From a virus (Duplodnaviria > Caudoviricetes): DNA of 31,130 bases. The position numbers were made by a program, and so were the translations under genes. The stretch's first letter is position 1. The number at the start of each line of letters is the position of its first letter. Shown one piece after another: positions 8,412 to 29,805 of the stretch. The DNA lies in the IMG/VR virus record IMGVR_UViG_3300037045_000341, positions 1 to 31,130 of that record. One strand, written 5' to 3'. The notes under the pieces were generated by a model. That model was not told the origin of the DNA. It saw only the letters and a list, made by a program, of their open reading frames with translations, and ran no database searches.

Positions 8412-8412
8412 G

Positions 8413-9060: not shown

Positions 9061-9067
9061 GTTCACC

Positions 9068-11301: not shown

Positions 11302-11330
11302 TTGACATAATTCATAGCCTTTTGTAAATT
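11302..11330 (+). promoter_or_regulatory. Sigma70-type promoter of moron gene
   Basis: TTGACA-N17-TAAATT upstream of SD AAGGAG and ATG 11384. Confidence 0.75.
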
Positions 11331-11383
11331 ACATGTATGTACGTATGTACGTAAGATGAGTCGTATTTGATAAGGAGTTATTC

Positions 11384-11647
11384 ATGGGGTACATAACACC
11401 AGGACTTGTTCAGTCACCTAGAGGAAGAATATCTGATTTGACAATCATCCACGATGACGGTGAGACAAGTTGGTCATTAGCGAAAATGACTTGGGATGGA
11501 AAGGAAAACAGATATGCAATGAGATGGAATGGAAGTGATGATGATCATGGGATTGGGAATCCTCAATCAAGAGGTGTTCCAACGTGGTTCATTCTACCAG
11601 ATAATATCGGAGCTCTTATTGAAAAGAGTCTCAATATCTTAAAATAA
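11384..11647 (+). CDS. Moron-encoded hypothetical protein (87 aa)
   Basis: Low GC, opposite strand to the late operon, own promoter, SD and hairpin; Trp-rich RWNG...GNPQSRGVPTWFILP. Confidence 0.85.
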   Translation: MGYITPGLVQSPRGRISDLTIIHDDGETSWSLAKMTWDGKENRYAMRWNGSDDDHGIGNPQSRGVPTWFILPDNIGALIEKSLNILK

Positions 11648-11662
11648 CAATTCAAATCAATA

Positions 11663-11693
11663 TACCAAGGATTCAAATTCTGGATCCTTGGTA
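11663..11693. terminator. Hairpin between convergent moron gene and terL
   Basis: TACCAAGGATTCA-AATTC-TGGATCCTTGGTA, 13-bp stem with one G-U pair. Confidence 0.7.
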
Positions 11694-11723
11694 GTATCAT
11701 AAAAATTGATAACGATTATATAC

Positions 11724-13466: not shown

Positions 13467-13885
13467 AGACCGAGCTCATCCTCCAGGGGGTCCTTCGTGT
13501 TTTCCTCGGATCGTTCCTTGTCGGTCAGCTTCATGATACGTCGGGCCGCAGGTGTGGCTCCGAACAGCCTCAGGACCTTGGTGTACTGGTCGAAAGCCTT
13601 GTTCATCGTCGTCAATTCGCCCTGTTTCTGGCTGTTTCCACCACGTTCATCGATGTATTGCGCCATGGTCCTGGTGCCGTTCAGCGTGATGGCGTCGTAC
13701 ATGTCCCGGTAGATACCATAGTTCAGGCATGCCCCCTCGAGCACGTTCAGGTCGAGTGTCGTCACGAGCTTATCCTCAACCAGTATCTTGAGTAACCTGG
13801 TCCATTCCACCCTGGCGTTCTCAGCGAAATACTCGGGAGCGCGGGGTATCTTGGCCAGCAGCCCGGCCTTATGTTTCCTCGCCAT
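13463..13885 (-). CDS. terS: Terminase small subunit, P27 family
   Basis: APEYFAENARVEW...FGATPAARR; directly upstream of terL with ATGA overlap. Confidence 0.9.
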   Translation of the reverse strand: MARKHKAGLLAKIPRAPEYFAENARVEWTRLLKILVEDKLVTTLDLNVLEGACLNYGIYRDMYDAITLNGTRTMAQYIDERGGNSQKQGELTTMNKAFDQYTKVLRLFGATPAARRIMKLTDKERSEENTKDPLEDELGL

Positions 13886-14372
13886 CGGCGCATACCCCCT
13901 TATGTTTTTCCCCGTGTGTGTTGATTGTCCTTACCGGCGCGGTCGCGCCCGGGGCGGCGTTTTTTGAACCCTCCCCCCGGGTCCTCTCACGTAATTCCTT
14001 CTTGGCAAAGTACTCATCGACCTTCCGCCGGTCATCCTTCCCCTTGCGCGTGTTGCACGAAACACACAAGGCTTGATAATGATCTGTATCGAGATCGAAC
14101 CGTCCGTACAGGTCCAGCATGATCTCAGCCGGGGTGTCGCGGTGATCGGTGACCGCCGCGGCATCCCCGCAGATGACGCACAATGGATGCTCGGCCAGGA
14201 ACCGCTTGGAGAACTCACGCCAGCGCGAGTCGTACCCGCGTGCCTGGGAGCTCGGCCGATCGTCGGCGCTGTCCGAGAAGCCCCTCGCGTGCCGCCTCGT
14301 GCACTGGTCGCAGTATCCGCTCCTGTTATGGTGGAAGTTCGGGCACCCGAACGTCTTGCACATCCTCTTCAT
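13869..14372 (-). CDS. HNH endonuclease (packaging cofactor, HK97 gp74-like)
   Basis: Start MKRMCKTFGC at 14372; RGYDSRW, HPLCVIC, VTDH, YQALCVSCNTRK. Confidence 0.9.
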   Translation of the reverse strand: MKRMCKTFGCPNFHHNRSGYCDQCTRRHARGFSDSADDRPSSQARGYDSRWREFSKRFLAEHPLCVICGDAAAVTDHRDTPAEIMLDLYGRFDLDTDHYQALCVSCNTRKGKDDRRKVDEYFAKKELRERTRGEGSKNAAPGATAPVRTINTHGEKHKGVCADGEET

Positions 14373-14563
14373 CGTCTCCCCTTCCTGATCTCGGGCACCA
14401 GGGCCTCGATCGCCACACGCACACGCGCCGGAAGCTCCAGCCATCCATCGGTCATGGAGAACCGCGCGATATCATGCCGCGCCACCCTCCGCCGCTCGGC
14501 GGCGAGCGCGCGCCCGGGCCGACGTCTTCCACCCTCCAGGCCGCGTCTATCGGCGTCATTCAT
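14369..14563 (-). CDS. Hypothetical protein (64 aa)
   Basis: ATGA overlaps at both ends. Confidence 0.6.
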   Translation of the reverse strand: MNDADRRGLEGGRRRPGRALAAERRRVARHDIARFSMTDGWLELPARVRVAIEALVPEIRKGRR

Positions 14564-14892
14564 CGGACGCTCCGTCGTGGTGGCTCCTCACCATACCCGG
14601 CCTCATCCAGGTTCGACAGGTCCTCCTTCAGCCGGGAGAACTCGAAGCCGTCCTGGAATATCAGGTAGCGGTCCTGGAACGTCGACAGCCTGGTCATCAC
14701 CGACCCGGGATGCATGCCGACCTTTCCCGCGATCTCCTTCGCCGTGATCTTGCGCGGCCAGAAGGGGATGGACTCCGCTATGCTCCTGTTCAGATCGGTG
14801 AGATCGTCATGCCGCACATGCCACCTGATGGGGGTCTGCACCCGTGAGGTGACCCTGCTCCCCCCAAGACTGATGATCCTTCCATCCATCAT
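14560..14892 (-). CDS. Winged-HTH protein, possible late transcription regulator
   Basis: SD AAGGAGG, ATGA overlap with loader stop; ITAKEIAGKVGMHPGSVMTRL. Confidence 0.6.
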   Translation of the reverse strand: MMDGRIISLGGSRVTSRVQTPIRWHVRHDDLTDLNRSIAESIPFWPRKITAKEIAGKVGMHPGSVMTRLSTFQDRYLIFQDGFEFSRLKEDLSNLDEAGYGEEPPRRSVR

Positions 14893-15686
14893 ACCGCCTC
14901 CTTCGCCCGCGGGACACCGGAGCCATGGCCGTACCGCCGCCAGGCGGTGACCAGGCACTCGGTGGTGAGCTTCCTCAGGATCGCGTCATCGAAGTAATTG
15001 GTGAAATCGGCCGGGTTCAGGTTGGTCGCGACGATCGTGCGGCTCATGCCGTTGTGGCGGTTGGTGATGATCTCCCCGAGGATCCTGGTCTCGTGCTCGG
15101 TCCACGCAGACCGGCCGATCTCATCGATCCCCAGGACATCGACATCCGAGTACCGCGCGATCACCTGGCTTTCGGTCATACAGTCCTTTCGGCCCAGGTA
15201 GGTCTCCCGTATCTGCCGGTAGATCACCGGCTCGGAGACATACAGCGCGCTATGGCTCAGCCGGACCGCCTCCTTCAGCGTCGCCACCATCAGGTGCGTC
15301 TTTCCCCGCTCGGTGGGACCGCAGAGCGCCACCGCCGACACCGTGCCGCTGGCAAGGGCCTTGCAACGCTCCACCGTCCTGGCCATCGCATCGCCGTCGC
15401 TGATGAAGCTGTCGAACGAGCATTCGGCGAACCGCGGAGCCACCCCGATGCTCCTGGTCATCTCAAGCAGGCGGTGCCGCGCGAAACCGCTGGCGATCTC
15501 CAACCGGTCCAGATCATCACGGCAGGCATGGCATCCCATCTCGCCCGATACCGACTCCACCCCGTCGTACACGTAGCCGTACACCCGGGCCTCGTATGGG
15601 CCATGCTTCGGACATACCCGGGGAACCGTCCTCAGCAGTCCGATCGCATCCGATCCTGGAACCATCCTCCGTAGGAAATCGTTCAT
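14889..15686 (-). CDS. DnaC/IstB-like helicase loader ATPase
   Basis: CPKHG...CHAC Zn motif, RFAECSFDSF, Walker A GPTERGKTHL, Walker B LGIDEIG, TIVATNL. Confidence 0.9.
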   Translation of the reverse strand: MNDFLRRMVPGSDAIGLLRTVPRVCPKHGPYEARVYGYVYDGVESVSGEMGCHACRDDLDRLEIASGFARHRLLEMTRSIGVAPRFAECSFDSFISDGDAMARTVERCKALASGTVSAVALCGPTERGKTHLMVATLKEAVRLSHSALYVSEPVIYRQIRETYLGRKDCMTESQVIARYSDVDVLGIDEIGRSAWTEHETRILGEIITNRHNGMSRTIVATNLNPADFTNYFDDAILRKLTTECLVTAWRRYGHGSGVPRAKEAV

Positions 15687-15688
15687 TG

Positions 15689-16702
15689 TCAGGCCTCCTT
15701 GCCGTGGCTTTTGAAATACTCCTGCCAGTCGGCCTCGTTCGCCAGGCGGCGTTGCGACGGTTTGTTCAGGTTCGTGCTGAACCTGGTCTGGCCTTGGAAC
15801 CGCTCGGGAAACAGCCCCCGGTACCCGGCCTCGATCGACTGCCTGATGCAGGCCACCCGCTCGCGATCGCCAGGCAGCGTCGAGAGCTTCTCGATGGCGA
15901 GATCGACGGCCCGCTGCGTCATCGGGTTCCTGGTCTCCCGTCGGAACGCTATGAAATCACCAAGTGCCTCGCGGTAGATTCCCTGGATAACCTGGGGGAT
16001 GGTTGGATCGTCGGTTTTCCGTCCCTTGGAGACCGGATTGCCGCTTTGGGGGATAATAGGGGGTATTATGTGTCTTGTGATTGTATCTTGTGTATGTATC
16101 ATTTGTTCGGACAGATTTGTCAAACGGTCCGTCATTTCTGTCAAACCGTTTGACAGTTCTGTCGCACCCTCAGACCCTGAATCCCCACCGTTGGACACTT
16201 CTGACCGACCCTCGGGAGCGTCCTGGGAACCGGATGAAACCAAAACCACCCCGGAGCTCCCGACAATACCCCCCTCGGCGAAGACTCCACCCTCAGGATG
16301 GGTGATACCATGTGACAATTCTGTCAGACCATCGGCGCGCTCTTTCGCCGCCTGGGTGGCCATGGCGGCCACATCGTCTATGAGCGACATGTACACGTTC
16401 TCCCGAAGCCGGAAATACGAGTACACCCCGCCCTCGCGGACTATGCGGCGCTCCATCACCCCAGCTGCCTCAAGCCGGTCAAAACGCCTGGACACCGTCC
16501 GTTGGGACCCTCCGACAACCGGAAGATCATCAAGTACCCCCGAGAAGTTCACCCAGGTGAAGGTGCGGCCGTCTATCACCATCGACCGCATCCGGCCGGT
16601 GGCCTGGTACTCCACAAACCACCTCAGTAGCATCGCCTCGTCCATGCCGAGGCCGAGCTGCAGCAGCCTCCGCTGGCTGTATCCAAGTATGCTGAATCTC
16701 AT
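15689..16702 (-). CDS. Phage replication initiator
   Basis: N-terminal wHTH (SQRTVSRRFDRLEAAG), repeat-containing linker, C-terminal FIAFRRE...IRQSIEAGYRGLF; directly upstream of loader. Confidence 0.8.
   Translation of the reverse strand: MRFSILGYSQRRLLQLGLGMDEAMLLRWFVEYQATGRMRSMVIDGRTFTWVNFSGVLDDLPVVGGSQRTVSRRFDRLEAAGVMERRIVREGGVYSYFRLRENVYMSLIDDVAAMATQAAKERADGLTELSHGITHPEGGVFAEGGIVGSSGVVLVSSGSQDAPEGRSEVSNGGDSGSEGATELSNGLTEMTDRLTNLSEQMIHTQDTITRHIIPPIIPQSGNPVSKGRKTDDPTIPQVIQGIYREALGDFIAFRRETRNPMTQRAVDLAIEKLSTLPGDRERVACIRQSIEAGYRGLFPERFQGQTRFSTNLNKPSQRRLANEADWQEYFKSHGKEA
16109..16326. repeat. Iteron-like repeats (candidate replication origin)
   Basis: Five TGACA-N4-TGTCA-like units at 16109, 16130, 16151, 16193, 16313, next to an AT-richer tract at ~16050-16105. 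Confidence 0.7.
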
Positions 16703-17007
16703 TGCCTGACCTCCTGGAACAGCGATGGCTGCGGATCCACCGGTTTCCTGCCGCTATCGGCCACCGCGGGCGCGGGGACGATGGGAAGCCGCTTGAGGTA
16801 CTCGCTTTTTCCGCTTGAGCTCTCCATGCCGCACATGCCCTTCACCTCGCGGTAGCGCCTCGCCACCGTCTCCTGCAGCGGTTTGCCCGCATAGGCGTGG
16901 GCCTTCAGCTCGGTGAGGGTGTCGTTGTAGATCTGGTATCCGAGCACGATCTGCCCGGGATAGTACCGCGAGCACACGTTCACCACAGCCTGTCTGATGC
17001 TGATCAT
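16699..17007 (-). CDS. Hypothetical protein (102 aa)
   Basis: SD-like GGAGG/AAGGA; ATGA overlap with initiator. Confidence 0.7.
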   Translation of the reverse strand: MISIRQAVVNVCSRYYPGQIVLGYQIYNDTLTELKAHAYAGKPLQETVARRYREVKGMCGMESSSGKSEYLKRLPIVPAPAVADSGRKPVDPQPSLFQEVRQ

Positions 17008-17040
17008 CCTTCATTCCTCCAGTGCCTATCCCGTCCAGTA

Positions 17041-17625
17041 TCAGAACGGGATGTCGTCGTCGAAATTTTCAGGTCCCGGTCCCTGGTATCCGGAATTCCT
17101 TCCCGGAGGGGGATCGAACCCCTGGCGGCCGCGTTGGTCACCCTTGAAACCCCGGTCATCGAAACTCTCCTGCCGTGCCTGACTATGGCCCTTGTCCTGG
17201 CGCGGTGAATCGCGCTTACCCGTATCCTGCCTGGGGCTCATCTGGCTGCTGCGATCGCGCTGGCCATTGCCACCGCCACCTTCATTGGAGCCTCCGCTCT
17301 GGCTTCCGCCCAGAAGGGCGATCGAGCCAACCACCACGGTGATCCGTGTCTTGGTCTGCCCGTCCTGATCCCAGCGGTCCTGACGCAGCTCGCCGCTGAC
17401 GGCCACCTGGCGGCCCTTGACCAGGTACTGCTCCAGATTCGTCGCGCTCTTGCCGAACAGGATGCAGTCGATGAATGAGGCGGTCTGCTCCCATTGGTCG
17501 CCGCGCTTGCGGCTTCCATTGACCGCGATAGAAAGCCTGCCCACGGGCGCGCCATTGCGGGAGTACTTGATCTCCATATCCCGCGTCAGCCTCCCGGTGA
17601 TCGATACCACATTGATGTCGTTCAT
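17041..17625 (-). CDS. ssb: Single-stranded DNA-binding protein
   Basis: INVVSITGRLTRD, KGRQVAVSGELRQDRW, Gly-rich linker, C-terminal DDDIPF; start placed after SD GGAGG (17628 or 17637 possible). Confidence 0.97.
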   Translation of the reverse strand: MNDINVVSITGRLTRDMEIKYSRNGAPVGRLSIAVNGSRKRGDQWEQTASFIDCILFGKSATNLEQYLVKGRQVAVSGELRQDRWDQDGQTKTRITVVVGSIALLGGSQSGGSNEGGGGNGQRDRSSQMSPRQDTGKRDSPRQDKGHSQARQESFDDRGFKGDQRGRQGFDPPPGRNSGYQGPGPENFDDDIPF

Positions 17626-17640
17626 CATTCCTCCCATACC

Positions 17641-17727
17641 TTACAGATCTCCCTTGCCGGTGGTATGATTGATTAACCAAAAACAAATCGCCAGCACGGC
17701 AAAGGAGAAAATCACATACAATCTCAA
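17641..17727 (-). CDS. Putative 28-aa single-TM peptide
   Basis: MRLYVIFSFAVLAICFWLINHTTGKGDL; TTG start overlaps upstream TGA (TTGA); fills the gap before ssb. Confidence 0.4.
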   Translation of the reverse strand: MRLYVIFSFAVLAICFWLINHTTGKGDL

Positions 17728-18359
17728 TCAAGCCGCTGGCAGATCGCGCTACGGCCCCTGTCATGCCCCTGCGAGTAGATCCAGTACGCGGACCCGTCCT
17801 GGAGCGCGAGTTGCGACATGGTCTGCCTCCTGCTGTCCTTGCGCACCCCGGAAATGCGCGAGTCCGCGAAATCGTCCACCTCTTTGGGTACGATCACCAT
17901 CAGGGTCTTGGACTGCTCAGAGAGGCGGCTATCGATACCTCCCAGGAATCCGTCGATAAACACGTCGTACACCCCGGTGGTGGTCCGCTTCGGATACTGC
18001 CTGCGGTATTCCCGGACCGCGGCCCTGGCATACCGATCCCCCATGCCATATAGATGCGAATGGACGCTGATGACGATCTCCACATCGCTGGCCGCACCGA
18101 AGAACACCGGCCTGGTCCCGCGGATCGCGCTCCTGCAGCGAAATGCGCCCGCGAGTATTCCCGCGAGCCGGTACCGCCAGAAACGCCCCTCCGATAGTGT
18201 TGAACATGCGTTTATTATCCGGGATTCCTCCTCGGTCAAGACTACGCCGTACTTGACCATCAGCCGCTGGGCGGCCAATGCGGCGGCCTCGGCTTCGGCC
18301 GGGTTCGCGTTACCCTCAGCCAGCTTCAGCAGCTTCCTCACTCTTTCAGCGACATTCAT
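17724..18359 (-). CDS. DUF2786-family phage protein
   Basis: ERVRKLLKLAEGNANPAEAEAAALAAQRLMVKYG N-terminus. Confidence 0.8.
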   Translation of the reverse strand: MNVAERVRKLLKLAEGNANPAEAEAAALAAQRLMVKYGVVLTEEESRIINACSTLSEGRFWRYRLAGILAGAFRCRSAIRGTRPVFFGAASDVEIVISVHSHLYGMGDRYARAAVREYRRQYPKRTTTGVYDVFIDGFLGGIDSRLSEQSKTLMVIVPKEVDDFADSRISGVRKDSRRQTMSQLALQDGSAYWIYSQGHDRGRSAICQRLD

Positions 18360-18679
18360 GACAGGCTTCCTCTCGCATCAAGCGACGCACGATCCGTCCT
18401 CGCGCCACCTTTCAGATGCCACGCCATGATCCGCTTCTGGTCCTCGAACCCAAGGCCTTCCCAATGGCCTCCACCATCCTTGGCGAATATCACGCTGCCA
18501 TCCAGGCCGGACGGACCGGCGATCATCACCACCCCGGGTACCGGGTAGTCGTAGGATTTGACGTCGGCCGCTCCACCCAGGAGCTTCTCCACGTTTTCCC
18601 TCACGTTTCGGATCTCCATCAGATCCGGGGTGATCTGCCTTGGATGGCGGATCATGACGGTGATTGTATAGGCACCCAT
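18356..18679 (-). CDS. Hypothetical protein (107 aa)
   Basis: SD AAGGA; ATGA overlap with next gene. Confidence 0.65.
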   Translation of the reverse strand: MGAYTITVMIRHPRQITPDLMEIRNVRENVEKLLGGAADVKSYDYPVPGVVMIAGPSGLDGSVIFAKDGGGHWEGLGFEDQKRIMAWHLKGGARTDRASLDARGSLS

Positions 18680-18727
18680 CGCGCACTTCCTTCGATCGTG
18701 GGAACCGATCGGTGATATAAGGGCCGC

Positions 18728-19546
18728 CTACGCGGCCTGATCGTCCATCGCCGGAGGAGGAGAATTGAACCCCTCCACATGCTGCTTGAACCGTCTCTCC
18801 TGGGCTTCCCAATACACAGGATCGATCTCACAGCCCTCGAATCCGAACCCCATGTCATGGCACGCTATGCGAAGCGATCCCGACCCCACATGCGAGTCGA
18901 AGACTGTCGCGCCCTGCAGCGCATACCTGCCCAGCAGCCACTTGTACAGGGACACCGGCTTCTGCGTAGGGTGTATCCTCGGGTTCTTCCTGCTCCCGTT
19001 GGGCACCGCGCTGAAGATCTTCGCGTTCGAGTTGAAGCTGCACCATGCGTATTCTCCCATAGCCATGGAGAAGTTCTCGCTGATGGTCGGCTTCCTCCAC
19101 ACCACGAAGCACCGCGTCGGGGGGAGCCCGAAATAGTTGCCGCCCCAGATGATCTGGTTCTCCGATATCCGAAACAGCTCCTCGAAATACTCCGGGCCCG
19201 GGGCGAAATCCCAGTGTGAGATGTCGTTGCCCGCCTTCCCGTCCTCCGAACCATATTTTTTCATCCAGATCCCGCCGGAGCGGTGGACCTTGATGACCGG
19301 ACTGTCGACCGTGGCAACGGTGTCACCGTCGGTGATGTGGTAGCGGTCGAACCGTCCTCCGAACCTGCTCCTGGATTTTCCAGCCCAGGAAGCCTTTCCT
19401 CCCCCGCCATATGGGGGATCCACAATAGCCAGTGCGTAATGCTTGTCAGGAATCCCCTTCATGAATTCCATGCAGTCGCACAGATGAACCTCGTTTATCA
19501 CTTGCCTGTCCTTCGGGGCCATGCCCCATTGCTTCCCGCTGCGCAT
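18728..19546 (-). CDS. Orphan DNA methyltransferase, beta-class N4-C/N6-A
   Basis: DCMEFM, IVDPPYG, IIWGGNYF, IHPTQKPVSLY, FDSHVGSGS, GCEID; true start may lie further downstream. Confidence 0.93.
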   Translation of the reverse strand: MRSGKQWGMAPKDRQVINEVHLCDCMEFMKGIPDKHYALAIVDPPYGGGGKASWAGKSRSRFGGRFDRYHITDGDTVATVDSPVIKVHRSGGIWMKKYGSEDGKAGNDISHWDFAPGPEYFEELFRISENQIIWGGNYFGLPPTRCFVVWRKPTISENFSMAMGEYAWCSFNSNAKIFSAVPNGSRKNPRIHPTQKPVSLYKWLLGRYALQGATVFDSHVGSGSLRIACHDMGFGFEGCEIDPVYWEAQERRFKQHVEGFNSPPPAMDDQAA

Positions 19547-19794
19547 CGGACTCCGTCCGACTCAAGCCATAGTACGGATCGGGGGCGCACTCGAATCAGA
19601 GGGCGCCACCGCGATCACCAAAGGAAAAGAACAATAGACTACCACCTCCTTGAAATCCCCCGCCGGGGGCGGCCCACCGGCCGCGGGCTCCACATACCCA
19701 TGGCCTGGTGGCTTTGTGAATCTATCCGGTATCCGGTTGGATCCACCTCCATGACCGCCCCCGCGGGTTGTCTTAAAAAACAATCGATACGATT

Positions 19795-19823
19795 TTCAAA
19801 AACTCCTCCGGCTGTGGTATGCT
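19795..19823 (+). promoter_or_regulatory. Candidate promoter for the plus-strand Zn-finger gene
   Basis: TTCAAA-N17-TATGCT with extended -10 TGn. Confidence 0.45.
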
Positions 19824-19870
19824 TGGTATTGCGAACAACAAGGCCGACAGGCCGAAGGAGTGATCTACCT

Positions 19871-20050
19871 ATGAATGGATTGAAATGTCCAAATCAGAAC
19901 TGCCCGTCAAACAAACAACCCCCCTATGAACCGTTCTCTCTTGGCTACAATGTCATCGGGGGACCGGCTGAACCGAACACGGCATTCGTTGTCTGGTTCT
20001 GCAAGTGCTGCGGCACGGTCATCTCGATAACGGCAGCCAAGCAGAGTTAA
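19871..20050 (+). CDS. Small Cys-rich (Zn-binding) protein, 59 aa
   Basis: SD AAGGAG; MNGLKCPNQNC...WFCKCCG; C-terminal part of ORF-track 19283..20050. Confidence 0.65.
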   Translation: MNGLKCPNQNCPSNKQPPYEPFSLGYNVIGGPAEPNTAFVVWFCKCCGTVISITAAKQS

Positions 20051-20489: not shown

Positions 20490-20717
20490 TCAGCCCTCGA
20501 CCTCAATCAATTCGCTGTACCGCTGCCGGGGTGTCTCGATGGGGGGAACCTTGCGGGCCTCCATCCATTTGTCGATCTCAAGCCGGTCGAACAGAACGCA
20601 GGCGCCCTGCTTGATGTGCGGTATCTGCCTGAGATGGACATACCGCCTTACGGTGTTCGCTGACAACGTCGTGTACGCGGCGCAATCCCTGGTCCGCATG
20701 TATCTACGTACTTCCAT
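20490..20717 (-). CDS. Excisionase-like HTH_17 DNA-binding protein
   Basis: SD AGGAGG; YMRTRDCAAYTTLSANTVRRYVHLRQIPHIKQGACVLFDRLEIDKWM. Confidence 0.85.
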   Translation of the reverse strand: MEVRRYMRTRDCAAYTTLSANTVRRYVHLRQIPHIKQGACVLFDRLEIDKWMEARKVPPIETPRQRYSELIEVEG

Positions 20718-20880
20718 GGTTGATCCTCCTGGCTTCGAGCCATTTCTCAAATTCCTTATCGTCAATGCGCCATACGGTTCCGACCCGGTAGGCCGGTAGT
20801 CCCTGGAAGTGGATCCAGTGGATAACCGTCCTTCGGTTCACCCTCAAGCGCTTTGAGGCGTCAGTGATTGATATGAGCAT
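20704..20880 (-). CDS. Second excisionase-like HTH_17 protein (58 aa, not in ORF track)
   Basis: MLISITDASKRLRVNRRTVIHWIHFQGLPAYRVGTVWRIDDKEFEKWLEARRINHGST; SD GGGGA. Confidence 0.85.
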   Translation of the reverse strand: MLISITDASKRLRVNRRTVIHWIHFQGLPAYRVGTVWRIDDKEFEKWLEARRINHGST

Positions 20881-21067
20881 CTAGAAATTCCCCTGAACTG
20901 GTTTTATCAAGATTTGGCATCGCTGAATTCAAAAAGAAATCCAATGCCTGCTCATAGATATCCTGTAAGGGTTTCCCAGAGAGGGCGCGATATAAATCAG
21001 CTTTTCGCTTTGTTTCCAAGCTGATCCAAGCTCCAATCTTAAATTTATCACCATTTGATTTGCTCAT
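20861..21067 (-). CDS. Ribbon-helix-helix-like regulator at the cro position
   Basis: KFKIGAWIS strand followed by two helices (LETKRKADLYRAL, LQDIYEQALDFFL); first gene divergent from cI. Confidence 0.65.
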   Translation of the reverse strand: MSKSNGDKFKIGAWISLETKRKADLYRALSGKPLQDIYEQALDFFLNSAMPNLDKTSSGEFLDAHINH

Positions 21068-21169: not shown

Positions 21170-21892
21170 ATGATTATTATGATAGAATTTTGGGATCGTT
21201 TTGAATCACAAATAAAAACATTATCTCTAACCAAAAAAGAGGTTGCTGCACTAGCTGGTATAAATTATGGAACCTTTGTCAACTATGCCACAAATAACAG
21301 AATCCCAAAGACAGAAGAAGCCATAAAGATCGCTCGCGCAATAGGGACTAGTGTTGAATATCTAGTATTTGGTGAAGAATCAGATATTGACCAAGAAGAA
21401 TTAAATTTTAAGAAGGTCGATACTACACCATCTCCTATCCATACCATGAATGGGTGCGTCACCCCCAATAAAGAGGAACCAACCATTTTGATACCACTCG
21501 CCCCGCAGAAGATAGCAGCCGGGCAGGGGGAGGAGTTCCTTCCACCGTCTGAATACCTGGGATATGTCCGGATCCTGGAACGCATGGCCAGGGGTATCGA
21601 CCCTCTTTCCTTGATGGCCGTCACAGTCAAGGGCGATTCCATGACCGGGGTGCAGATATTCGAGGGGGATGTGGTGATATTCGCCCGGGACCATATCAGC
21701 GAGAACGGGATATACATCATCTCTCTTTACGGGGATCTGAAGGTGAAGAGGCTAGAGTTCCGATCGGGGGAGCAGCAGATATTCATCCATAGCGAGAACT
21801 CGAGGTATACAATGGAGGTCGTCTCCATGGATAGTGAGAATCTACAGATCCTGGGGAAGGTCGTGGGGTGGATACATTGTCATCCTTATTAA
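21170..21892 (+). CDS. cI: CI-like repressor (HTH_XRE + S24 autopeptidase)
   Basis: TKKEVAALAGINYGTFVNY HTH; AAG cleavage region; VKGDSM (Ser), VKRL (Lys), ILGKVV. Confidence 0.95.
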   Translation: MIIMIEFWDRFESQIKTLSLTKKEVAALAGINYGTFVNYATNNRIPKTEEAIKIARAIGTSVEYLVFGEESDIDQEELNFKKVDTTPSPIHTMNGCVTPNKEEPTILIPLAPQKIAAGQGEEFLPPSEYLGYVRILERMARGIDPLSLMAVTVKGDSMTGVQIFEGDVVIFARDHISENGIYIISLYGDLKVKRLEFRSGEQQIFIHSENSRYTMEVVSMDSENLQILGKVVGWIHCHPY

Positions 21893-21905: not shown

Positions 21906-24173
21906 CTATTGTGGGTATTGGTTATTATAAGCAACGATGACTTTCTCTGGCAAATTAACTAACAACAGCTTTCTTAGATCACCAGGTTCAATTTTCTGAA
22001 GGCCTCCGGCATAAACTCTTGTTTGATTAGATATATTTTTTTTTGCCGAATCATTTAAAATATCTATAATTTTATTATATAATGTCTGATCAGAAGTAAG
22101 CAAATCAGCTAGCCACTTTTTAGGATATAAAAGTAAGTAAGTATTTAAAGCTATTGCTCTTGATTTATTTTGTATAAAATATAAAGGAGGTAAATTACTT
22201 TTATTCCTACCCATATACGTTAGTAAAAATGGAGGGACTTCCCTCGTTTCTTGTTTATACCAAGGTCGTCTGGATTTTATCAGAGTTCTATCAATTATTG
22301 GCTTCTCATTATTGGTGCTTATTTTCGCTTCTTGCAGATAATCGTAGAATTGTGGATAATTTTTCAATATTTCTGCTTCATCTAATTCACAATCAATTAC
22401 AACAAGCTGCGGGTTAACCTTTGGATATCCATCATCATCAGATTCAACAATTAAAGATTTCAAATACCTTGCTTTAGGTAATATTGGTTTTAATGCTATC
22501 TCTGGAATCGCTCTCATTTTTGCTTCCGAACGTTGCATAACAAAAAATGAATTGGCTCCTGTTGCTATTCCTCTCGATATATTAAAAAGGTCATCAAATT
22601 TTATGATTTTCTTATTTGGAGACAATAGGTATGGCTTATCGATATTAAACAACTTTCGCCAATTATTAAAATCATTTTTAAATTCTTCAAGCATTACCTC
22701 CTTAGTAAAATTTGGCTTAATGATTGAGTCCCCATAAGTAATTTTTATTTTTTCAGACTCTCTTGGAATCCTCTTTCTAAATGTTATTATTGTTGTTGAA
22801 ATGTTTATAGTAACAAATTGTGGCTTACTATCATCATAGACATGTATGCTAATCAATTGTACCTTATTCGTTAAATACTGCCGAATAGCTTCACCATACC
22901 TAGTCTGAAGAAAGAAACTGGGTAATAACCATACTCCAATCCCATCTTGACTTAACCATTTATCCATGATCAATAGATGATAAACAAATAGACCAGCATC
23001 GCCTTTGACGTTTATATCCATCTGTCTTTCCACGAGTCTTTGGATCTGTTTCTTATATTCTTGAGGAATATGATCATGGCGATTGTAAGGAGGGTTAACT
23101 AGCATCAGGTTTCGCTGTGAGCCTAAAACAGTCTTTGGTGAAAGAGCGTCTCCATAGATTACTGACAATCCAAGATGCTTGCATCGGCTATAAGCTTCTT
23201 TAGCCATATTGACATCAATATCAATGCCTACAGCAGAACTAATTTTATAATTTTTATTCTCTCTTTTATTGACTTCTTCGATCTCATCTTTCAAGCTCAA
23301 GAATAGAGCTCCAGTCCCGACGGCAGAATCACCAAAATCAATCTTCCTAGTATCATCCCCAAAAGCTTCAATTGCACAAATTGCCATATCTTTGGCATAC
23401 TCTGGTGGTGTCACATAGATAGCGTCTTCAACCGGTTTTTCCACCATATGTTCTGGTATTAGATTAGAAAATAAGTTTGGCTGTTCATCACTTTTCTCAA
23501 ATTCATTATTACTCTGATCATAAAATTTTGCTTTAAAACCACTTCCATTATCTGTATATTCAGATTTAATATCAATTATTTCTTCATGTTCTCTCAAATA
23601 TTCTTTGACTTTAAGCAATATTCTCTTTATTAATAATAATTTATCCGTATTGGTATTCAATGATTCCAGGGGAAGAAGATCCTCATTTATGAAAACACTA
23701 GAAAACAGAGTCGAATAATCTGAAGTTGTACTTTCTATTTTCACGCCAATTTTGTTTTTTGTTAGTCGTAATGGTGGGATAAAAGGTATTCTAAAATACC
23801 AATTAATTGTTTCTAGGCATGCGGATAATTCCTTTGCATATTCAATATCAGCACCCTCATAAAGTGTGATATGCAATCTACTATATGGATAGTCTGGTTT
23901 ATACTCGATTGCTCCCATTTCTTCGGACTCACATCTAATAAAAACAACATAAGGAGGCTTATCATTTTTGAGATTAAAGCTTTCTGGTTCTATCAAATCC
24001 AGATATGTTATCTTTTTTTCTTCAATGTAAGCTAGTTTCTCGTTGAATCCATCAAAAGTTCTAATTGTTATATGAGCAACAGACTTACTATTTGGTTTAC
24101 TAATAAGCTTAATCAATGAAAGACAATTCTCAATGTATCCGTTGTTATTTAAAAATAGGGCATAATAATTCAT
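21906..24173 (-). CDS. 2H-phosphoesterase domain fused to gamma-class N6-adenine DNA methyltransferase
   Basis: HIT at residues 34 and 101; YVTPP, DSAVGTGAL, GIDID, VNPPY, RGIATGANSFF, RVYAGGLQKIEP. Confidence 0.85.
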   Translation of the reverse strand: MNYYALFLNNNGYIENCLSLIKLISKPNSKSVAHITIRTFDGFNEKLAYIEEKKITYLDLIEPESFNLKNDKPPYVVFIRCESEEMGAIEYKPDYPYSRLHITLYEGADIEYAKELSACLETINWYFRIPFIPPLRLTKNKIGVKIESTTSDYSTLFSSVFINEDLLPLESLNTNTDKLLLIKRILLKVKEYLREHEEIIDIKSEYTDNGSGFKAKFYDQSNNEFEKSDEQPNLFSNLIPEHMVEKPVEDAIYVTPPEYAKDMAICAIEAFGDDTRKIDFGDSAVGTGALFLSLKDEIEEVNKRENKNYKISSAVGIDIDVNMAKEAYSRCKHLGLSVIYGDALSPKTVLGSQRNLMLVNPPYNRHDHIPQEYKKQIQRLVERQMDINVKGDAGLFVYHLLIMDKWLSQDGIGVWLLPSFFLQTRYGEAIRQYLTNKVQLISIHVYDDSKPQFVTINISTTIITFRKRIPRESEKIKITYGDSIIKPNFTKEVMLEEFKNDFNNWRKLFNIDKPYLLSPNKKIIKFDDLFNISRGIATGANSFFVMQRSEAKMRAIPEIALKPILPKARYLKSLIVESDDDGYPKVNPQLVVIDCELDEAEILKNYPQFYDYLQEAKISTNNEKPIIDRTLIKSRRPWYKQETREVPPFLLTYMGRNKSNLPPLYFIQNKSRAIALNTYLLLYPKKWLADLLTSDQTLYNKIIDILNDSAKKNISNQTRVYAGGLQKIEPGDLRKLLLVNLPEKVIVAYNNQYPQ

Positions 24174-24193
24174 AAGTATCCTATATTATCACT

Positions 24194-25159
24194 TTAGTAG
24201 ACATCAGATCTATCACGCAAGTTTGTATTATTTTTTGCCACTAACCCCATTAAATCATGAATAACAATTTGATGGAATTTCTGAGCTTGCATCCATGCCA
24301 TCTGTTTATTACTACCTTGATTCCACCAAGTAGGATCTTCTTGCCTTAAACGTAAAAACCATTCATATTCCACCTTTATTTTATCGATAGTTGATTTTAA
24401 CTCATCAGTATGTTCGCTAAAGATTGTTGGAATCTTTTCCAACCGCTCAAAAGGCGTCATGTTTATACAATCCATAACATAAGCTGGTGTAACTTTATTC
24501 TTATACATACAGGCAAGCATCGAGAAACAAGTAATTAATCTAGCATACTTTAATTTTAATCGTTTCCAATATTTCTTATTCTCTTCGTCAGCTTCATCAC
24601 GACGATATTCATAATTTAAGGTTAAAGTATACCAGTATCGTAGAATATCATTCATTAGGTAAAGTGGAAAGAATTCCTCACTGTGTTCATCATAGTCAAT
24701 AAAATATTTATTTACTACTTCTTTAACCAATTGATTATAGGCCAAAATGTTAAATATTGGCTTGCTCTCAAGCATTAATAGCATTCTTGCTGTAAAGCTA
24801 TTATTATAATCCTCCTCTCTGCTTCCGATATCTAAAAGATTATGTTTTGAAATAAAGTCCCAATAATGTCCATTTTTGCTTGGCTCTTTGTACTTCAGAA
24901 CTTTAGAAATTTCATAAACCTTAGAAAAAAAACAATATTTATCAAGTTTGAATTCACTTATTTTTCTAAATTCATCGGAACTCATCATTATAAAGAATAA
25001 ATCTAAGTCCGAATCATGCGACATTTCAAACCGCCCTAAAGAGCCACACACAAAAATACAAATATTATACCTAGTACATAGGGATTTCCCCAATTCCATT
25101 TTAAGAATTTCAATTTTATTTATTGATTCTTGTTTTAATTCATCCATTAAAAGACTCAT
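24194..25159 (-). CDS. Pol-beta superfamily nucleotidyltransferase with helical C-terminal domain
   Basis: IFVCGSLGRFEMSHDSDLDLFF (GS...DxD); SD GGGAG. Confidence 0.88.
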   Translation of the reverse strand: MSLLMDELKQESINKIEILKMELGKSLCTRYNICIFVCGSLGRFEMSHDSDLDLFFIMMSSDEFRKISEFKLDKYCFFSKVYEISKVLKYKEPSKNGHYWDFISKHNLLDIGSREEDYNNSFTARMLLMLESKPIFNILAYNQLVKEVVNKYFIDYDEHSEEFFPLYLMNDILRYWYTLTLNYEYRRDEADEENKKYWKRLKLKYARLITCFSMLACMYKNKVTPAYVMDCINMTPFERLEKIPTIFSEHTDELKSTIDKIKVEYEWFLRLRQEDPTWWNQGSNKQMAWMQAQKFHQIVIHDLMGLVAKNNTNLRDRSDVY

Positions 25160-25178
25160 AATTATCTCCCAAAAGACT

Positions 25179-25685
25179 CTAATTTTTTTTTATCGTTTTC
25201 TTCCAATATTCAATATTTTTCCGTTGGACCCTTTCCAATTCAGCACTGTATTGAAAAATTTTCTCTTTATCTAAACGACCTGCTAATGCATCAAGAATAA
25301 AATTATCCCTTATAATATTTAACTCTATATGAATAACGACATTTCGCATCCAATATTCTTCATAATTAAAATAAGAAGAAACCGCGGTAGTAAAAGTTAT
25401 TAACGAGCTTATAATAAGGCCAAGAATGATCTGGTAATTTATATCTATTGTATCCTTCAGGCCAAGAATGATAGTACTTGCCATCGCTAGAGACAATATA
25501 AGGATTTTAAGAAATCTTACAATTCTTCCAAATTTCTTATCTTGAGAACAAAAATAATTATGATATTTTATAATTAAATCAAATACACCTTTCGCCTCAC
25601 TATCTAAATCCTTATACCAAATCTGCATAGTATATTTATCTACATTACTTAATATATTCTTTAGTCGCATTAGTATAAACCTCAA
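25179..25685 (-). CDS. SLATT (DUF4231-like) two-transmembrane protein
   Basis: Two hydrophobic helices followed by SYFNYEEYWMRN and a helical tail; start may be ATG 25670 or 25628. Confidence 0.78.
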   Translation of the reverse strand: MRFILMRLKNILSNVDKYTMQIWYKDLDSEAKGVFDLIIKYHNYFCSQDKKFGRIVRFLKILILSLAMASTIILGLKDTIDINYQIILGLIISSLITFTTAVSSYFNYEEYWMRNVVIHIELNIIRDNFILDALAGRLDKEKIFQYSAELERVQRKNIEYWKKTIKKN

Positions 25686-25926: not shown

Positions 25927-26592
25927 ATGGAACACTGGATGGAATTAATACCTGAGCATGTTCGGGAGAAATATGAGCTTCATAATTACAACAGCGCCGT
26001 GGAGATTCTTTACCAGGCATATCCAGAACATTTCCATAACATTATGGATGCCCTCTCTCATTTCTCGATCTCCATTCAGGATATACTCCAATCAGGAGGA
26101 AACGAGTCTGAAGTCCCCAAAAAGCTTGCTAGTGTCATGAACCCTCAAGGTTGGACAGAAACCAAGATTTCCGGAGATTTGCTTGTGACCCTCCAAAAAA
26201 GAAAGCACCAGAATGATGGCTTCGATTTGAATGAGATTCGCATTGAGGATTTCATCGACGGCCACAATATCGATTTTGTCAAAGACAAAGTGGCTGTTGA
26301 TATTGAATGGAATAGCAAGGATCAGACGTTTGACAGAGATCTTTTTGCGTTCAGAACCTTCTATGAATGTGGTATCATTGCCTGTGGGGTGATAATAACC
26401 AGGAGCGCTGAATTGAATCCAGTATTTGCTAGTTTGGGAAGTTCGATCAGAAAGAAATACGGAGCAAGCACCACTTGGATGGGAAAACTGACTTCAAGGC
26501 TGCAATCAAGGAGACATGGTGGTTGCCCTTTGCTCGTAGTAGGAATCACACCAAGAACGATTATCGACCACCAGGGAGTTCAAACCAATTGA
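25927..26592 (+). CDS. BglII/BstYI-family type II restriction endonuclease
   Basis: SGGNES, HNIDFVKDKVAVDIEWNSKDQTFDRDL, KYGASTTWMGKL, GGCPLLVVGI. Confidence 0.88.
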   Translation: MEHWMELIPEHVREKYELHNYNSAVEILYQAYPEHFHNIMDALSHFSISIQDILQSGGNESEVPKKLASVMNPQGWTETKISGDLLVTLQKRKHQNDGFDLNEIRIEDFIDGHNIDFVKDKVAVDIEWNSKDQTFDRDLFAFRTFYECGIIACGVIITRSAELNPVFASLGSSIRKKYGASTTWMGKLTSRLQSRRHGGCPLLVVGITPRTIIDHQGVQTN

Positions 26593-27227
26593 TGCCAGAA
26601 ATGAAAGAGCAATACCACATAGAACACGATCTGATCTCATTCTGCGAAGGTCGGAAATATAAAACGATCCTCGCCGATCCCCCCTGGCAATTCCAAAATA
26701 GAACTGGGAAGATGGCCCCGGAACACAAGAGACTGAACCGATACTCGACAATGACTCTTGATGAGATCAAGGCCCTGCCGGTGAATGATATCGCCGACGA
26801 TCAGAGCCACCTGTATCTTTGGGTTCCCAACGCGCTCCTTCCAGAAGGACTTGCGGTGATGAAGGCCTGGGGGTTTAATTATAAAACCAATGTGGTCTGG
26901 GAAAAAATCAGGAAAGACGGCCAACCCGATGGTCGTGGTGTAGGTTTCTATTTCCGTAATGTGACAGAGATTCTTCTTTTCGGGATCAAGGGCAACAACA
27001 ACCGGACCTTACAACCTGGAAGAACTCAAGTAAATTTAATCCGGACTATGAAACGGGAGCATTCTCGGAAACCTGATGAATTTATCTCACTTGTTGAGAG
27101 CTGCAGCAACCCGCCATATATTGAGCTTTTCGCTCGGGGAGAACGTGAGGGGTGGACGCTTTGGGGAGATCAAGCCAATGAAGCATATGCTCCTGATTGG
27201 CCGACGTATAAGAATTGCACACACTAG
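26592..27227 (+). CDS. MT-A70-family adenine methyltransferase
   Basis: TGATG coupling to the endonuclease; ILADPPW, HLYLWVPN, AWGFNYKT, REHSRKP, IELFARG, GWTLWGDQ. Confidence 0.93.
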   Translation: MPEMKEQYHIEHDLISFCEGRKYKTILADPPWQFQNRTGKMAPEHKRLNRYSTMTLDEIKALPVNDIADDQSHLYLWVPNALLPEGLAVMKAWGFNYKTNVVWEKIRKDGQPDGRGVGFYFRNVTEILLFGIKGNNNRTLQPGRTQVNLIRTMKREHSRKPDEFISLVESCSNPPYIELFARGEREGWTLWGDQANEAYAPDWPTYKNCTH

Positions 27228-27403
27228 TCAAGAAGATCTTTCGATTCGCTCAGCATTTTGAAATTTGCTTTATAAAAATTGCAAAAGTTTTGTTGTACGG
27301 AACAGCGGTCTTGTATAGCGTAACCACGGTCTTATTTGCGCGGAAAATTCATCTGGCTTCCCACGCTAAAGGATTCTGATATGAATTACTCACTTTCATA
27401 AGG

Positions 27404-28234
27404 TTATAACTGGCAAATATTTCTTGAAAAAATTAATAATTCATTTCCAGCTTTAGTCGCTCCAGCGCTATAGTTTAATAGGATTTTTTCCTTTGTATAT
27501 TGCTGGTATAGTTCATGTATAAGTTCGCAATCGTCATATGTAAGTATCCATTTGAAGGGTAGTGTCCGAATTACATTTGATAGTTCAGCATGGTCACTTT
27601 CAGTATAAAAATTTTCATACAAAAAGGCTCCCTTCTTTACATACGGAGGATCAATATTCAGTAGCGTATTATCGATCTCATATTTATTAATTGTTTTTGC
27701 TAAAAAAACAGATGCGTCTTGATTGTATAATTCTATATCTTCTCTATGTTTGCCAATGATTTTTATTCGATCAATAAGATTTTTTTTTGAAAACCTAGCA
27801 TCAATTTTATAATTCCCGATTTGATCAAAACCACCTATCGGACCTCCTTGTATAATCCCTGATACATTGGTCCTATTAAGGAAAAAAGTAGCGAATCCAA
27901 CTTCCAGCACTGAATAATGGCTGGGATTTTTGTAGAATGTCTTTTGGATTTGCCATGTATTAATGTTTACTTCAGAATCTTGAATAAGCTCTATGAAATC
28001 ATCTGTAGAATCAATACACGATTTCCAGAAACAATAAATATGATAATCGAAATCATTGAGAACAATCTTTGAGACTTTTTTATTATGCAGCAGTTTGAGA
28101 GCCAATCCGGCCCCACCCGCAAACGGTTCAATATATATCCCATTTGTTGTATGCCTCTCAATAATTGGTGTAACTGTATTGTATAATACTGACTTTCCAC
28201 CAGGATATCTCAACGGGGATAGGAAAGAGGCCAT
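27404..28234 (-). CDS. Dam-like (D12 class) N6-adenine DNA methyltransferase
   Basis: SPLRYPGGKS, YIEPFAGGAG, FFLNRT, IDPPY, WILTYD. Confidence 0.93.
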   Translation of the reverse strand: MASFLSPLRYPGGKSVLYNTVTPIIERHTTNGIYIEPFAGGAGLALKLLHNKKVSKIVLNDFDYHIYCFWKSCIDSTDDFIELIQDSEVNINTWQIQKTFYKNPSHYSVLEVGFATFFLNRTNVSGIIQGGPIGGFDQIGNYKIDARFSKKNLIDRIKIIGKHREDIELYNQDASVFLAKTINKYEIDNTLLNIDPPYVKKGAFLYENFYTESDHAELSNVIRTLPFKWILTYDDCELIHELYQQYTKEKILLNYSAGATKAGNELLIFSRNICQL

Positions 28235-28299
28235 GCTTTTCTCCTTTCTACATCAATCTATCACTGAATTCATTATAAAGGTATAGTTAAAAAATAGGA

Positions 28300-29805
28300 T
28301 TACGCGATTAAATAATTTATTAATGCCAATAGTCCCCCCTTGGGCAAACTCAATAATTTATCTGTTGAAATGATGTAGTTGCTTGGATCATGTATAACCC
28401 AGTTAAGAGGAGCGGCTGTAGATTTGTAGTCTGAGAAATTATCATACAAATAATCTCGGATTTGAGAATCAGAAATAAAGTTTGCTGCACTTGATCTATT
28501 TGTGTACGTATTGATTATTTCACTTAATTTTAGTTCTTTCCCGTGGGATATCTGATCCCATATATTTTTACCTGTATTTAGAGTATTGTGAGTTTTTGAA
28601 TAGTATTTAAAGGATTGTTCAAGAAGACATCTTGTCAAGTATGCTCCGCAAACTGGCAGGTCTGCAATTAAACGTCGTTGAGAGAAGATTGAAATCTCCC
28701 TGCAAAGCCGTAATAATCCATGGCATAGTTGATTTGTTGGATCCAGATGGGAAGAATCAAGACCAGCAAAAAAATATGGTAGTTGTCTACTAGTGGTTTT
28801 GGGCGGAGGACTATTGGATCCAGGAGAGTATGGAGGAGCTGAGCTGTCGTCTGCTTCGGTTGTACTTGTATAATCTGCTGGAGGATCAGGTTGCATGTCT
28901 TGGCTTGGGCTTTTATCTTGCGTTTCTGCTGATGATTGATTCTCGTTGGACTTACTTAATTCTGGAATTATATCTCTAAGTAGAGCGATGATATCAACAT
29001 CCATTATTGAGGACCTTGTATTCAACGTGTTGTCAATAAATGCTTTTCGTGTGAACTCAGTAATTAACTTATCTAATCTTTCTTTTGTTATATACTTTGT
29101 ATTTGAAACGAGATTAAAGTCCTCGTCAAATGAAAGATTTAACAATGATGTTGCCTCTTTAGTCCTGAAAATTCGGATTAGCTTATCAGGTTCTATGGTG
29201 AGTAATGTCAATTTTTCTCGTTCGTTTTTACTCCATGTATTGGAGGAAATCCCCCGATCTAGAATTTTATAATTGCAGATAAACCTTTTCGTATCGGAAG
29301 GTGATAACATCAAAATATCAGCGATCTCACGGGCAGATTTACCTTGTAGATAATAATCATATGAAATTCTCCATTTGGATACCGATGACCATTGCCTAAC
29401 ACCTTCTATATGGCGTGCTGCAAGATACGGCATGGCTCTCTCTCGCGAATCCACTAAATCAACGGGGATGGAGGAAATTTCATCGACTAGAGCTGTGTTC
29501 GGATACGGAAAGAGTCTATCATAAGCCCTTGGCACTAGGCTCCTGTCAAGGAACATTTGATATATAGCTGTACGCCTATTTCCCTCAAGAACTATATTTT
29601 GGTTATTCTCCGTAACAACAACAAGTCTCTCTCCTGGGAGTAGCACACCCATATCGTTGATTTTTTTAGCTAAAGAAAGAAGATCTTCATTCAACAGCAT
29701 ATATTCACGTATGTCTTCCTGACTTGAACTGACGGTCACTTTAAAACGAGGATTTTTCTCATCGAGTTTTAAATTTAAAGGGGAGAGCGTTGTAGTTTGA
29801 AACAT
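28300..29805 (-). CDS. ParB/Srx-like N-terminal domain protein with HEPN-like C-terminal domain
   Basis: LKLDEKNPRF and IVLEGNRRTA (ParB-like); Pro/Ser linker; C-terminal TRCLLEQS...LNWVIH. Confidence 0.7.
   Translation of the reverse strand: MFQTTTLSPLNLKLDEKNPRFKVTVSSSQEDIREYMLLNEDLLSLAKKINDMGVLLPGERLVVVTENNQNIVLEGNRRTAIYQMFLDRSLVPRAYDRLFPYPNTALVDEISSIPVDLVDSRERAMPYLAARHIEGVRQWSSVSKWRISYDYYLQGKSAREIADILMLSPSDTKRFICNYKILDRGISSNTWSKNEREKLTLLTIEPDKLIRIFRTKEATSLLNLSFDEDFNLVSNTKYITKERLDKLITEFTRKAFIDNTLNTRSSIMDVDIIALLRDIIPELSKSNENQSSAETQDKSPSQDMQPDPPADYTSTTEADDSSAPPYSPGSNSPPPKTTSRQLPYFFAGLDSSHLDPTNQLCHGLLRLCREISIFSQRRLIADLPVCGAYLTRCLLEQSFKYYSKTHNTLNTGKNIWDQISHGKELKLSEIINTYTNRSSAANFISDSQIRDYLYDNFSDYKSTAAPLNWVIHDPSNYIISTDKLLSLPKGGLLALINYLIA

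Follow-up and report, generated by a model that had tools for sequence, protein, structure and literature searches.

Defence systems that combine a nucleotidyltransferase (NTase) with an effector are already known. Hailong (HalA and HalB) places an NTase beside a membrane effector, and Clover pairs the dGTPase CloA with the NTase CloB. On the phage side, the 2H phosphoesterase fold is used against CBASS. We found no description, among such systems, of an eraser enzyme fused to a restriction-type methylase. This is the arrangement predicted in the stretch of viral DNA analysed here (Duplodnaviria; Caudoviricetes; IMG/VR record IMGVR_UViG_3300037045_000341, positions 1 to 31,130), the full 31,130 nucleotides of which we call the window. 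A cassette of three genes in the window encodes a putative SLATT membrane effector, a pol-beta NTase and a 2H domain fused to an N6-adenine DNA methyltransferase (2H::methylase). The cassette is likely an anti-phage system without a name. We tentatively read it as an abortive-infection guard circuit, in which the NTase would write, the methylase-tethered 2H domain would erase and phage interference would open SLATT; we regard this as a real possibility that stops somewhat short of probable.

The cassette consists of three co-directional open reading frames (ORFs) on the minus strand, separated by 19 and 20 nt (Table 1). Its GC content is 0.314, compared with 0.614 for bases 1-20000 of the window. 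The initial annotation, made from the letters of the DNA, had proposed these three genes as a candidate defence operon, and its coordinates, gene spacing and low GC content were borne out by the ORF and GC check.

Table 1. Features of the cassette and its immediate surroundings, in window coordinates.
Feature	Coordinates	Strand	Details
SLATT two-transmembrane protein, predicted membrane effector	25179..25685	-	NCBIfam SLATT_1, hydropathy
Pol-beta NTase with helical C-terminal domain and GlnE/DrrA-like predicted fold; predicted writer	24194..25159	-	321 amino acids (aa)
2H phosphoesterase::N6-adenine DNA methyltransferase fusion, 755 aa	21906..24173	-	single open frame
2H domain, residues 1-200, predicted eraser	23574..24173	-	H34-x-T36, H101-x-T103, Y105
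Variable linker, residues 210-247	23433..23546	-	predicted local distance difference test (pLDDT) score <50; aligns poorly among homologues
Gamma-class adenine methyltransferase and target-recognition region, residues 253-736	21966..23417	-	PDLC03328
CI-like prophage repressor, context and not cassette	21170..21892	+	Pfam Phage_CI_repr and Peptidase_S24
BglII-family nuclease with MT-A70 methylase, and PD-Lambda-5 A/B pair, context	25927..29805	both	

We identified 40 related loci (L001-L040) in pattern scans with the NTase alignment, 11 of them in genomes (from 113 candidates) and 29 in metagenomes (from 220). The NTase was the query and about six pairs of loci are near-duplicates, so counts within this set are not independent. 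A gene of the same 2H family directly follows the NTase in 35 of the 40 loci. Two others (L036 and L038) encode a different 2H protein (2H-SAK) downstream of the NTase plus a divergent 2H::methylase. In the remaining three, L029 has a deletion, the contig ends at L028 and no 2H gene occurs within 537 bp at L035. Of the 28 close loci, 25 have SLATT upstream of the NTase; two contig edges and the L029 deletion account for the other three. SLATT is also present in all seven of the closest genome loci (six labelled Bacillota). Pairwise identities of the three components correlate with one another (rho 0.55-0.65 over 14 loci, the pairs not being independent).

The gene or domain that follows 2H is more variable. 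A gamma methylase follows 2H in 19 loci, and in L017 and L023 a full Type IIG enzyme (PDLC03603, E 2e-125) stands in its place. Type IIG methylase domains are also visible in L019, and L026, L027 and L037 start alike but are cut. The fusion is split into two frames in L013. Four Pseudomonadota or Campylobacterota genomes encode the NTase and a solo 2H with no effector, and effector-less pairs of this kind are found at L008-L011, L032-L034, L040, L070 and L072. One SLATT-less locus (L039, where about 360 bp upstream of the NTase are in view) instead encodes the NTase, a 2H::methylase and then a CBASS-type patatin (PDLC00757, E 1.4e-99). Given pairs that lack an effector and a methylase that can be swapped between Type II gamma and Type IIG forms, the NTase plus 2H is what stays constant in this family. 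The three genes of the initial annotation thus do travel together across genomes; they do not form a fixed unit of three, since the effector-less pairs and the swapped carriers leave two of them as the core.

In a tree of 38 NTases, from which fragments, frameshifted rows and duplicates were left out, a clade of 30 sequences (support 100/100) includes 28 with a 2H neighbour. Within it, the 21 SLATT-associated sequences form a further 100/100 clade, and the Type IIG rows are nested inside this clade; therefore the carrier changed while SLATT stayed. NTases of the PADLOC candidate system PDC-M70 fall outside the 2H-linked clade. The wider NTase family is rare, occurring in 8 of 400, 2 of 401, 1 of 401 and 1 of 401 genomes of the GTDB samples (centres included), and the two new loci from these samples (L070 and L072) are both solo NTase and 2H pairs.

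We searched separately for homologues of the 2H domain and obtained 169 representatives of clusters at 50% identity; the following tallies cover the 150 listed. Seventy-two of these are fused to a gamma methylase, 73 are short and five are other long proteins. Among 96 longer homologues, nine carry a GNAT domain (with a weak PIN match), four are Type IIG-like and two lack a methylase family. In one further representative the fusion partner is an Argonaute TIR-APAZ protein (E 3e-132). At the level of single proteins, 2H is joined to TIR-APAZ, to GNAT-PIN (~900 aa) or to a 480-aa protein in P0250, P0290-P0298, P0266 and P0300. The C terminus of the 480-aa fusion appears GIY-YIG-like by eye and has no profile match.

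The predicted effector is a 168-aa ORF that opens with TTG and matches NCBIfam SLATT_1 (NF033634) at 56.7 bits, above the curated cut-off of 41 (E 2.4e-15). Its Pfam DUF4231 match (E 2e-4) is below cut-off. Two hydrophobic peaks lie near residues 55 and 86, in agreement with the two-transmembrane SLATT-like assignment made from the sequence at the outset, and 41 positions are kept in at least 13 of 14 loci. An ATG at 25667, giving 162 aa, is the more likely start, because it has GAGG upstream and most homologues are ~154-167 aa long. In L024 (2067-3716), SLATT forms the in-frame tail of a 549-aa ORF, which is probably due to read-through from a disrupted upstream gene.

The second protein carries the GS...DxD motif by which it was initially called an NTase. 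This call is strengthened by the invariance of G39-S40 and D51/D53 in all 40 close homologues and in all 18 of the wider aligned set; R43 and D117 are also invariant. Pfam NTase families, among them DUF294 and GlnE as weak hits, match the protein only below gathering score. Its AlphaFold2 (AF2) model is predicted with confidence (pLDDT 89.9), and a fold search with this model retrieved the AMPylase domain of DrrA (Z 13.3, root-mean-square deviation (rmsd) 5.3, 266 aligned), both GlnE domains (Z 12.2 and 11.9) and MNT (Z 8.8). Across DrrA and GlnE, rmsd is 4.8-5.4 over 263-266 aligned residues at 8-13% identity. This shared fold does not fix the product of the NTase; in helical proteins, such Z values show fold and not function.

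The initial annotation had likened the NTase to those of CBASS and Hailong; at whole-fold level it does not appear alike, its predicted fold resembling GlnE/DrrA. Foldseek returned no match to the model at E 0.001 and matched Hailong HalB partially (E 0.045, template modelling (TM) score 0.22 of the query). The best E value in a PDB sequence search was 0.36, and CD-NTase-like entries reached E ~0.3 over just 32 positions. CD-NTases are absent among the matches listed by both fold searches, although such lists cannot exclude a family, and no PADLOC cyclase model matched at E up to 0.1. PDC-M70A is the closest PADLOC model, with 94 bits (E 2.3e-27) over residues 6-219, compared with 495 bits for a true member. 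Self-priming on a C-terminal tyrosine of the NTase was considered and rejected, as many homologues have Phe or Leu there. A longer or fused form of the NTase was not found among 7992 candidates, which is weak evidence.

The third ORF, in which the initial annotation had noted two HxT motifs and an NPPY adenine methyltransferase, does carry these motifs in one frame. Its AF2 model has a pLDDT of 89.1 and a predicted TM (pTM) score of 0.88, with the linker at residues 210-247 disordered, which hints that the 2H and methylase domains may pack in a defined way. The 2H motifs, H34-I-T36 and H101-I-T103, are ~70 residues apart, and both histidines are invariant in 73 of 73 aligned rows. The window's own 2H domain has no Pfam match, and the 2H call therefore rests on homologues and predicted structure. 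Standalone homologues exceed the cut-off of the 2'-5' RNA ligase family (PF13563) in four of four genome loci, and an Atlas structure of the 2H domain matches clusters of the same family (TM 0.61 over 164 residues). PDB sequence searches with 2H returned ribosomal protein noise only and no solved relative.

Residues 253-736 match the PADLOC model MTase_II PDLC03328 (E 2.3e-87) and contain FGDSAVGTG (280-288) and NPPY (360-363) motifs followed by a target-recognition region. Fold search with the methylase retrieved CamA and M.BseCI (E about 1e-23 to 1e-22). S283 in motif I replaces a Pro present in 51 of 60 relatives. Full-length relatives of the fusion number 59 among the 150 listed cluster representatives. 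Over 60 full-length fusions, the catalytic residues are conserved as follows: H34 in 58, H101 in 60, N360 in 60 and Y363 in 55.

A related fusion matched 20 plasmid methylases, which are 35-40% identical to its methylase part. In three of four opened loci, a XamI-family nuclease lies directly upstream of the standalone plasmid methylase. With three of these plasmid relatives behind XamI nucleases, a Type II restriction system is the likely origin of the cassette methylase; its nuclease is not in the cassette. No XamI-like nuclease occurs among the flanking window genes scanned. A cognate nuclease elsewhere in the genome was seen in none of five relatives' genomes, but 14 controls likewise gave none. 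GTCGAC, which we take to be the XamI target, has 12 copies in the window, a count that is uninformative.

We propose the following scheme for the guard circuit. Writing by the NTase would be constant and would yield a short nucleotide product, probably an oligonucleotide that is either free or built on a protein tyrosine. An oligonucleotide is proposed because it would reconcile the GlnE/DrrA fold with the chemistry of 2H enzymes and with patatin effectors, which respond to nucleotides. The 2H domain, tethered to the methylase, would cleave this product. The methylase would act as a tripwire, serving either as bait for anti-restriction proteins or as a labile carrier, such that a phage disturbing it would cause the product to accumulate and SLATT to open. 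In the two-gene versions, the same product may act directly on a host target, like a toxin-antitoxin pair. We favour a harmful product because the effector-less pairs look self-sufficient, and in them the product itself must do the work.

Several observations speak for this circuit: the regular pairing of 2H with the NTase, the presence of SLATT in most close loci, the correlated identities of the three components, the patatin in the SLATT-less locus L039, the exchangeable carrier of 2H, the patchy range of the family and the position of the cassette in a prophage defence hotspot. Two natural lesions, each in a single assembled locus, point both ways. In L072, the catalytic N-terminal core of the NTase is lost and the solo 2H is intact, which fits 2H as an antidote and, by analogy, would follow the usual order of decay of a toxin-antitoxin pair. 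In L020, a frameshift disrupts SLATT and stops interrupt aligned regions of the fusion (one just past the first HxT motif), while the NTase frame is open with a K202E substitution; this would be expected of a harmless or protective NTase more than of a toxic one. The initial annotation had also raised the option that the NTase is a toxin reversed by 2H; for the two-gene pairs, this option and the signal option fit equally well.

Besides L020, further points weigh against the guard circuit. The closest folds to the NTase are protein-tyrosine adenylyltransferases, and we know of no 2H enzyme that takes a single AMP off tyrosine. A single locus shows the patatin swap. Many of the solo pairs lack both methylase and effector, so the core does not need the methylase. 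The GNAT-PIN, TIR-APAZ and most of the distant methylase fusions are known from protein sequence and not from gene context. Finally, the three named constitutive nucleotide signals in defence, those of Clover, Hailong and Panoptes, are all inhibitory according to the Clover preprint (bioRxiv 10.1101/2025.07.09.663793).

The variety of carriers raises the broader possibility, which we consider doubtful though worth stating, that the NTase and 2H eraser are a portable guard module bolted onto unrelated front-line defence proteins as tripwires. The carriers would include the Type II methylase, the Type IIG enzyme, Argonaute TIR-APAZ and GNAT-PIN. A phage that attacks or engages the carrier would flip the nucleotide balance, and SLATT or patatin would then kill the cell.

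The most serious rival, not considered in the initial annotation, inverts the polarity of the circuit. Here the effector would be kept shut by the NTase product, which could be a small nucleotide or else oligo-AMP attached to SLATT as a mark. The methylase, on sensing unmethylated phage DNA or a DNA mimic, would switch on 2H and thereby remove the brake. The inhibitory signals of the three named systems provide precedent, as do MNT antitoxins, which are reported to AMPylate their toxin and which are among the fold matches to the NTase. The persistence of the NTase beyond SLATT and 2H in L020 is what would be expected of an antidote, the pTM of the fusion model suggests a defined docking of 2H on the methylase, and an E. 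coli plasmid carries a distant relative of the NTase behind an HD-domain protein, in a Clover-like layout. However, effector-less NTase and 2H pairs hold nothing in the operon to inhibit, and if 2H were a toxin restrained by the NTase, L072 should not persist, although this is one assembled locus. We consider inverted polarity unlikely but deserving of serious attention.

Another view holds that the parts are uncoupled, with the NTase and 2H forming a mobile pair, for writing and erasing or for addiction, in which read-through joins the last gene to any defence gene that it lands in front of, and with the methylase and SLATT acting independently. Consistent with this, 2H comes last in the pair, is always N-terminal in the examined fusions and is joined to at least four unrelated carriers; the split frames of L013 and the disordered linker could be read similarly. 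Yet the fusion is kept, with both active sites retained, in the 59 full-length representatives (<50% mutual clustering identity), SLATT stays through the carrier swap inside one clade, and the NTase of L036 and L038 has a second 2H and nevertheless keeps the divergent 2H::methylase alongside. These observations make uncoupled passengers improbable.

A scheme resembling Metis would have the methylase mark host DNA, phage degradation free methylated adenine nucleotides, the NTase convert these into a SLATT signal and 2H clear the basal level. Variants that carry a methylase of their own are predicted in the Metis preprint (bioRxiv 10.1101/2025.11.05.686725), the methylase motifs of the cassette are conserved though it has no nuclease, and one lineage (L030 and L031) carries a PUA-calcineurin and HAD pair downstream of the fusion. 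The cassette itself has no PUA, MisC-like or HAD component, however, and the Metis neighbour is limited to that one lineage and lies ~0.9 kb away. The scheme also leaves 2H fusions to non-methylase carriers unexplained and gives no reason for the covalent 2H-methylase link, and we give it only a slim chance. Least probable is a role outside defence, in which a GlnE/GlnD-like circuit would reversibly nucleotidylate a protein of the host or prophage, for example the methylase; the whole-length fold likeness to GlnE and the weak DUF294 and GlnE matches recall such circuits, but the rare and patchy distribution, the position of a GC-poor cassette in a prophage hotspot, the partnership with SLATT or patatin and the restriction, TOTE and transposase genes neighbouring related loci all argue otherwise.

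The window is a virus record that encodes a terminase, portal, capsid, tail tube and CI-like repressor. This repressor flanks the cassette on one side, convergent with the fusion gene and 13 nt from its stop, and two other defence loci lie on the other side, in keeping with a defence-island setting. The claim that the operon lacks a restriction nuclease holds for the three genes but not for their surroundings, where a divergent pair of BglII-family nuclease and MT-A70 methylase starts at 25927. The two genes of this pair overlap (25927-27227, plus strand) and form a separate restriction-modification pair; as part of the cassette they were rejected, being divergent and not noted beside related loci. 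The PD-Lambda-5 A/B pair (27404-29805, minus strand; E 8e-24 and 4e-109) adds a second defence locus to this hotspot. Divergent from the repressor, two small excisionase-like (HTH_17) genes lie with a 68-aa ORF at 20490-21067 (minus strand) and mark a lysogeny switch region. A further phage-borne N6/N4 methylase gene (18728-19546, minus strand) brings the window to four methylase genes of different families. The promoter and terminator count is near the level of shuffled sequence (29 against 23.1, standard deviation 4.7).

Outside the window, a viral scan with the close NTase alignment accepted none of 288 candidates and one with the 2H alignment none of nine, the fusion alignment found six loci with the methylase part only, and no GenBank phage match was found. 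A search of plasmids with solo 2H likewise had no match.

Distant NTases pair with other phosphoesterase-type genes, including an exonuclease, histidine phosphatases and an HD protein. In a prophage (L056, 5288-6990), a 3'-5' exonuclease gene precedes an NTase of the 2H-linked clade, with no 2H. In L071 (1147-3482, minus strand), a histidine phosphatase, a distant NTase and an unrelated 2H lie in one run, likely as an independent NTase-2H pairing. The E. coli plasmid NZ_CP092257.1 (L041; 4.5 kb) carries an HD-domain protein and a distant NTase relative (4131-684 across the origin and 711-1706) as cargo in a Clover-like layout, the HD protein being missing from the gene table. Identification of this locus as Clover was rejected, as the HD protein, at ~350 aa, seems too short for CloA, in which residue numbers above 460 are cited; the rejection rests on the HD protein and not on the CloB sequence. 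True PDC-M70 pairs occur on rhizobial plasmids (L043 and L045), with a split 5'-nucleotidase gene upstream in L045. PUA-calcineurin and HAD genes, the composition of type I Metis, lie ~0.9 kb downstream of 2H::methylase at 11102-13564 in L030 and 11177-13536 in L031.

The cassette is a compact and testable candidate defence system, with an NTase family, a built-in eraser and a SLATT effector. How SLATT proteins detect signals is called an open question in a recent preprint (bioRxiv 10.64898/2026.04.29.721553). If the tethering is functional, the cassette would link restriction-modification to nucleotide signalling and would provide a 2H enzyme with a host-side immune role. A portable guard module would mean that restriction-type immunity can be coupled to nucleotide signalling in a general manner, and would bring in a new signal or mark. 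Novelty of the cassette is likely: PADLOC, one of the checks named in the initial annotation, returned no matching system, and version 2.0 has no model for 2H or the cassette SLATT at E 0.1. We found no published account of the combination in a search that did not include the surveys likeliest to list such neighbourhoods (Burroughs 2015, Nicastro 2023) and most subscription papers.

The window NTase belongs to the same broad family as that of PDC-M70, but true members pair with PDC-M70B, which has no match in the seven island proteins scanned; with the partner absent, membership was rejected. As in Hailong, an NTase is paired with a membrane effector, but HalB matches the NTase model only partly, and the cassette effector is SLATT by NCBIfam and is accompanied by 2H::methylase. 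GlnE adenylyltransferase/removase and the AMPylase domain of Legionella DrrA are the best whole-length fold matches to the NTase; in contrast to these matches (8-13% identity), the cassette has a defence context and a separate 2H eraser. Its methylase is related to those behind XamI nucleases in Type II restriction-modification, but the cassette is without a nuclease and has 2H fused at the methylase N terminus. CBASS is set apart by composition; the patatin of L039 matches a CBASS effector model.

Clover shares with the cassette an accessory pol-beta NTase in a defence operon, and patatin is listed among effectors next to CloB homologues in the available text of its preprint (bioRxiv 10.1101/2025.07.09.663793, Extended Data Fig. 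1a legend). The cassette and flanking proteins scanned, however, include no HD domain or dGTPase, and neither an eraser nor a methylase is described for Clover in that text; the distinction rests on composition and not on CloB sequence. Metis resembles the cassette in tying defence to adenine methylation, in using a clean-up enzyme and, in type II, in having a membrane effector (bioRxiv 10.1101/2025.11.05.686725). It senses through PUA or MisC and erases with a HAD enzyme, and NTase, 2H and SLATT are not described in the accessible part of that preprint; the cassette proteins have no PUA, calcineurin or HAD Pfam match, a comparison that covers these families and not MisC itself. In DRT10/UG17 (reverse transcriptase, noncoding RNA and SLATT), a reverse transcriptase acts as the writer and a host exonuclease as the eraser, with no methylase in the available text. 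SLATT there is proposed to respond to the build-up of a nucleic-acid product whose level is held down by a nuclease (bioRxiv 10.64898/2026.04.29.721553) – the same logic as in our best model for the cassette.

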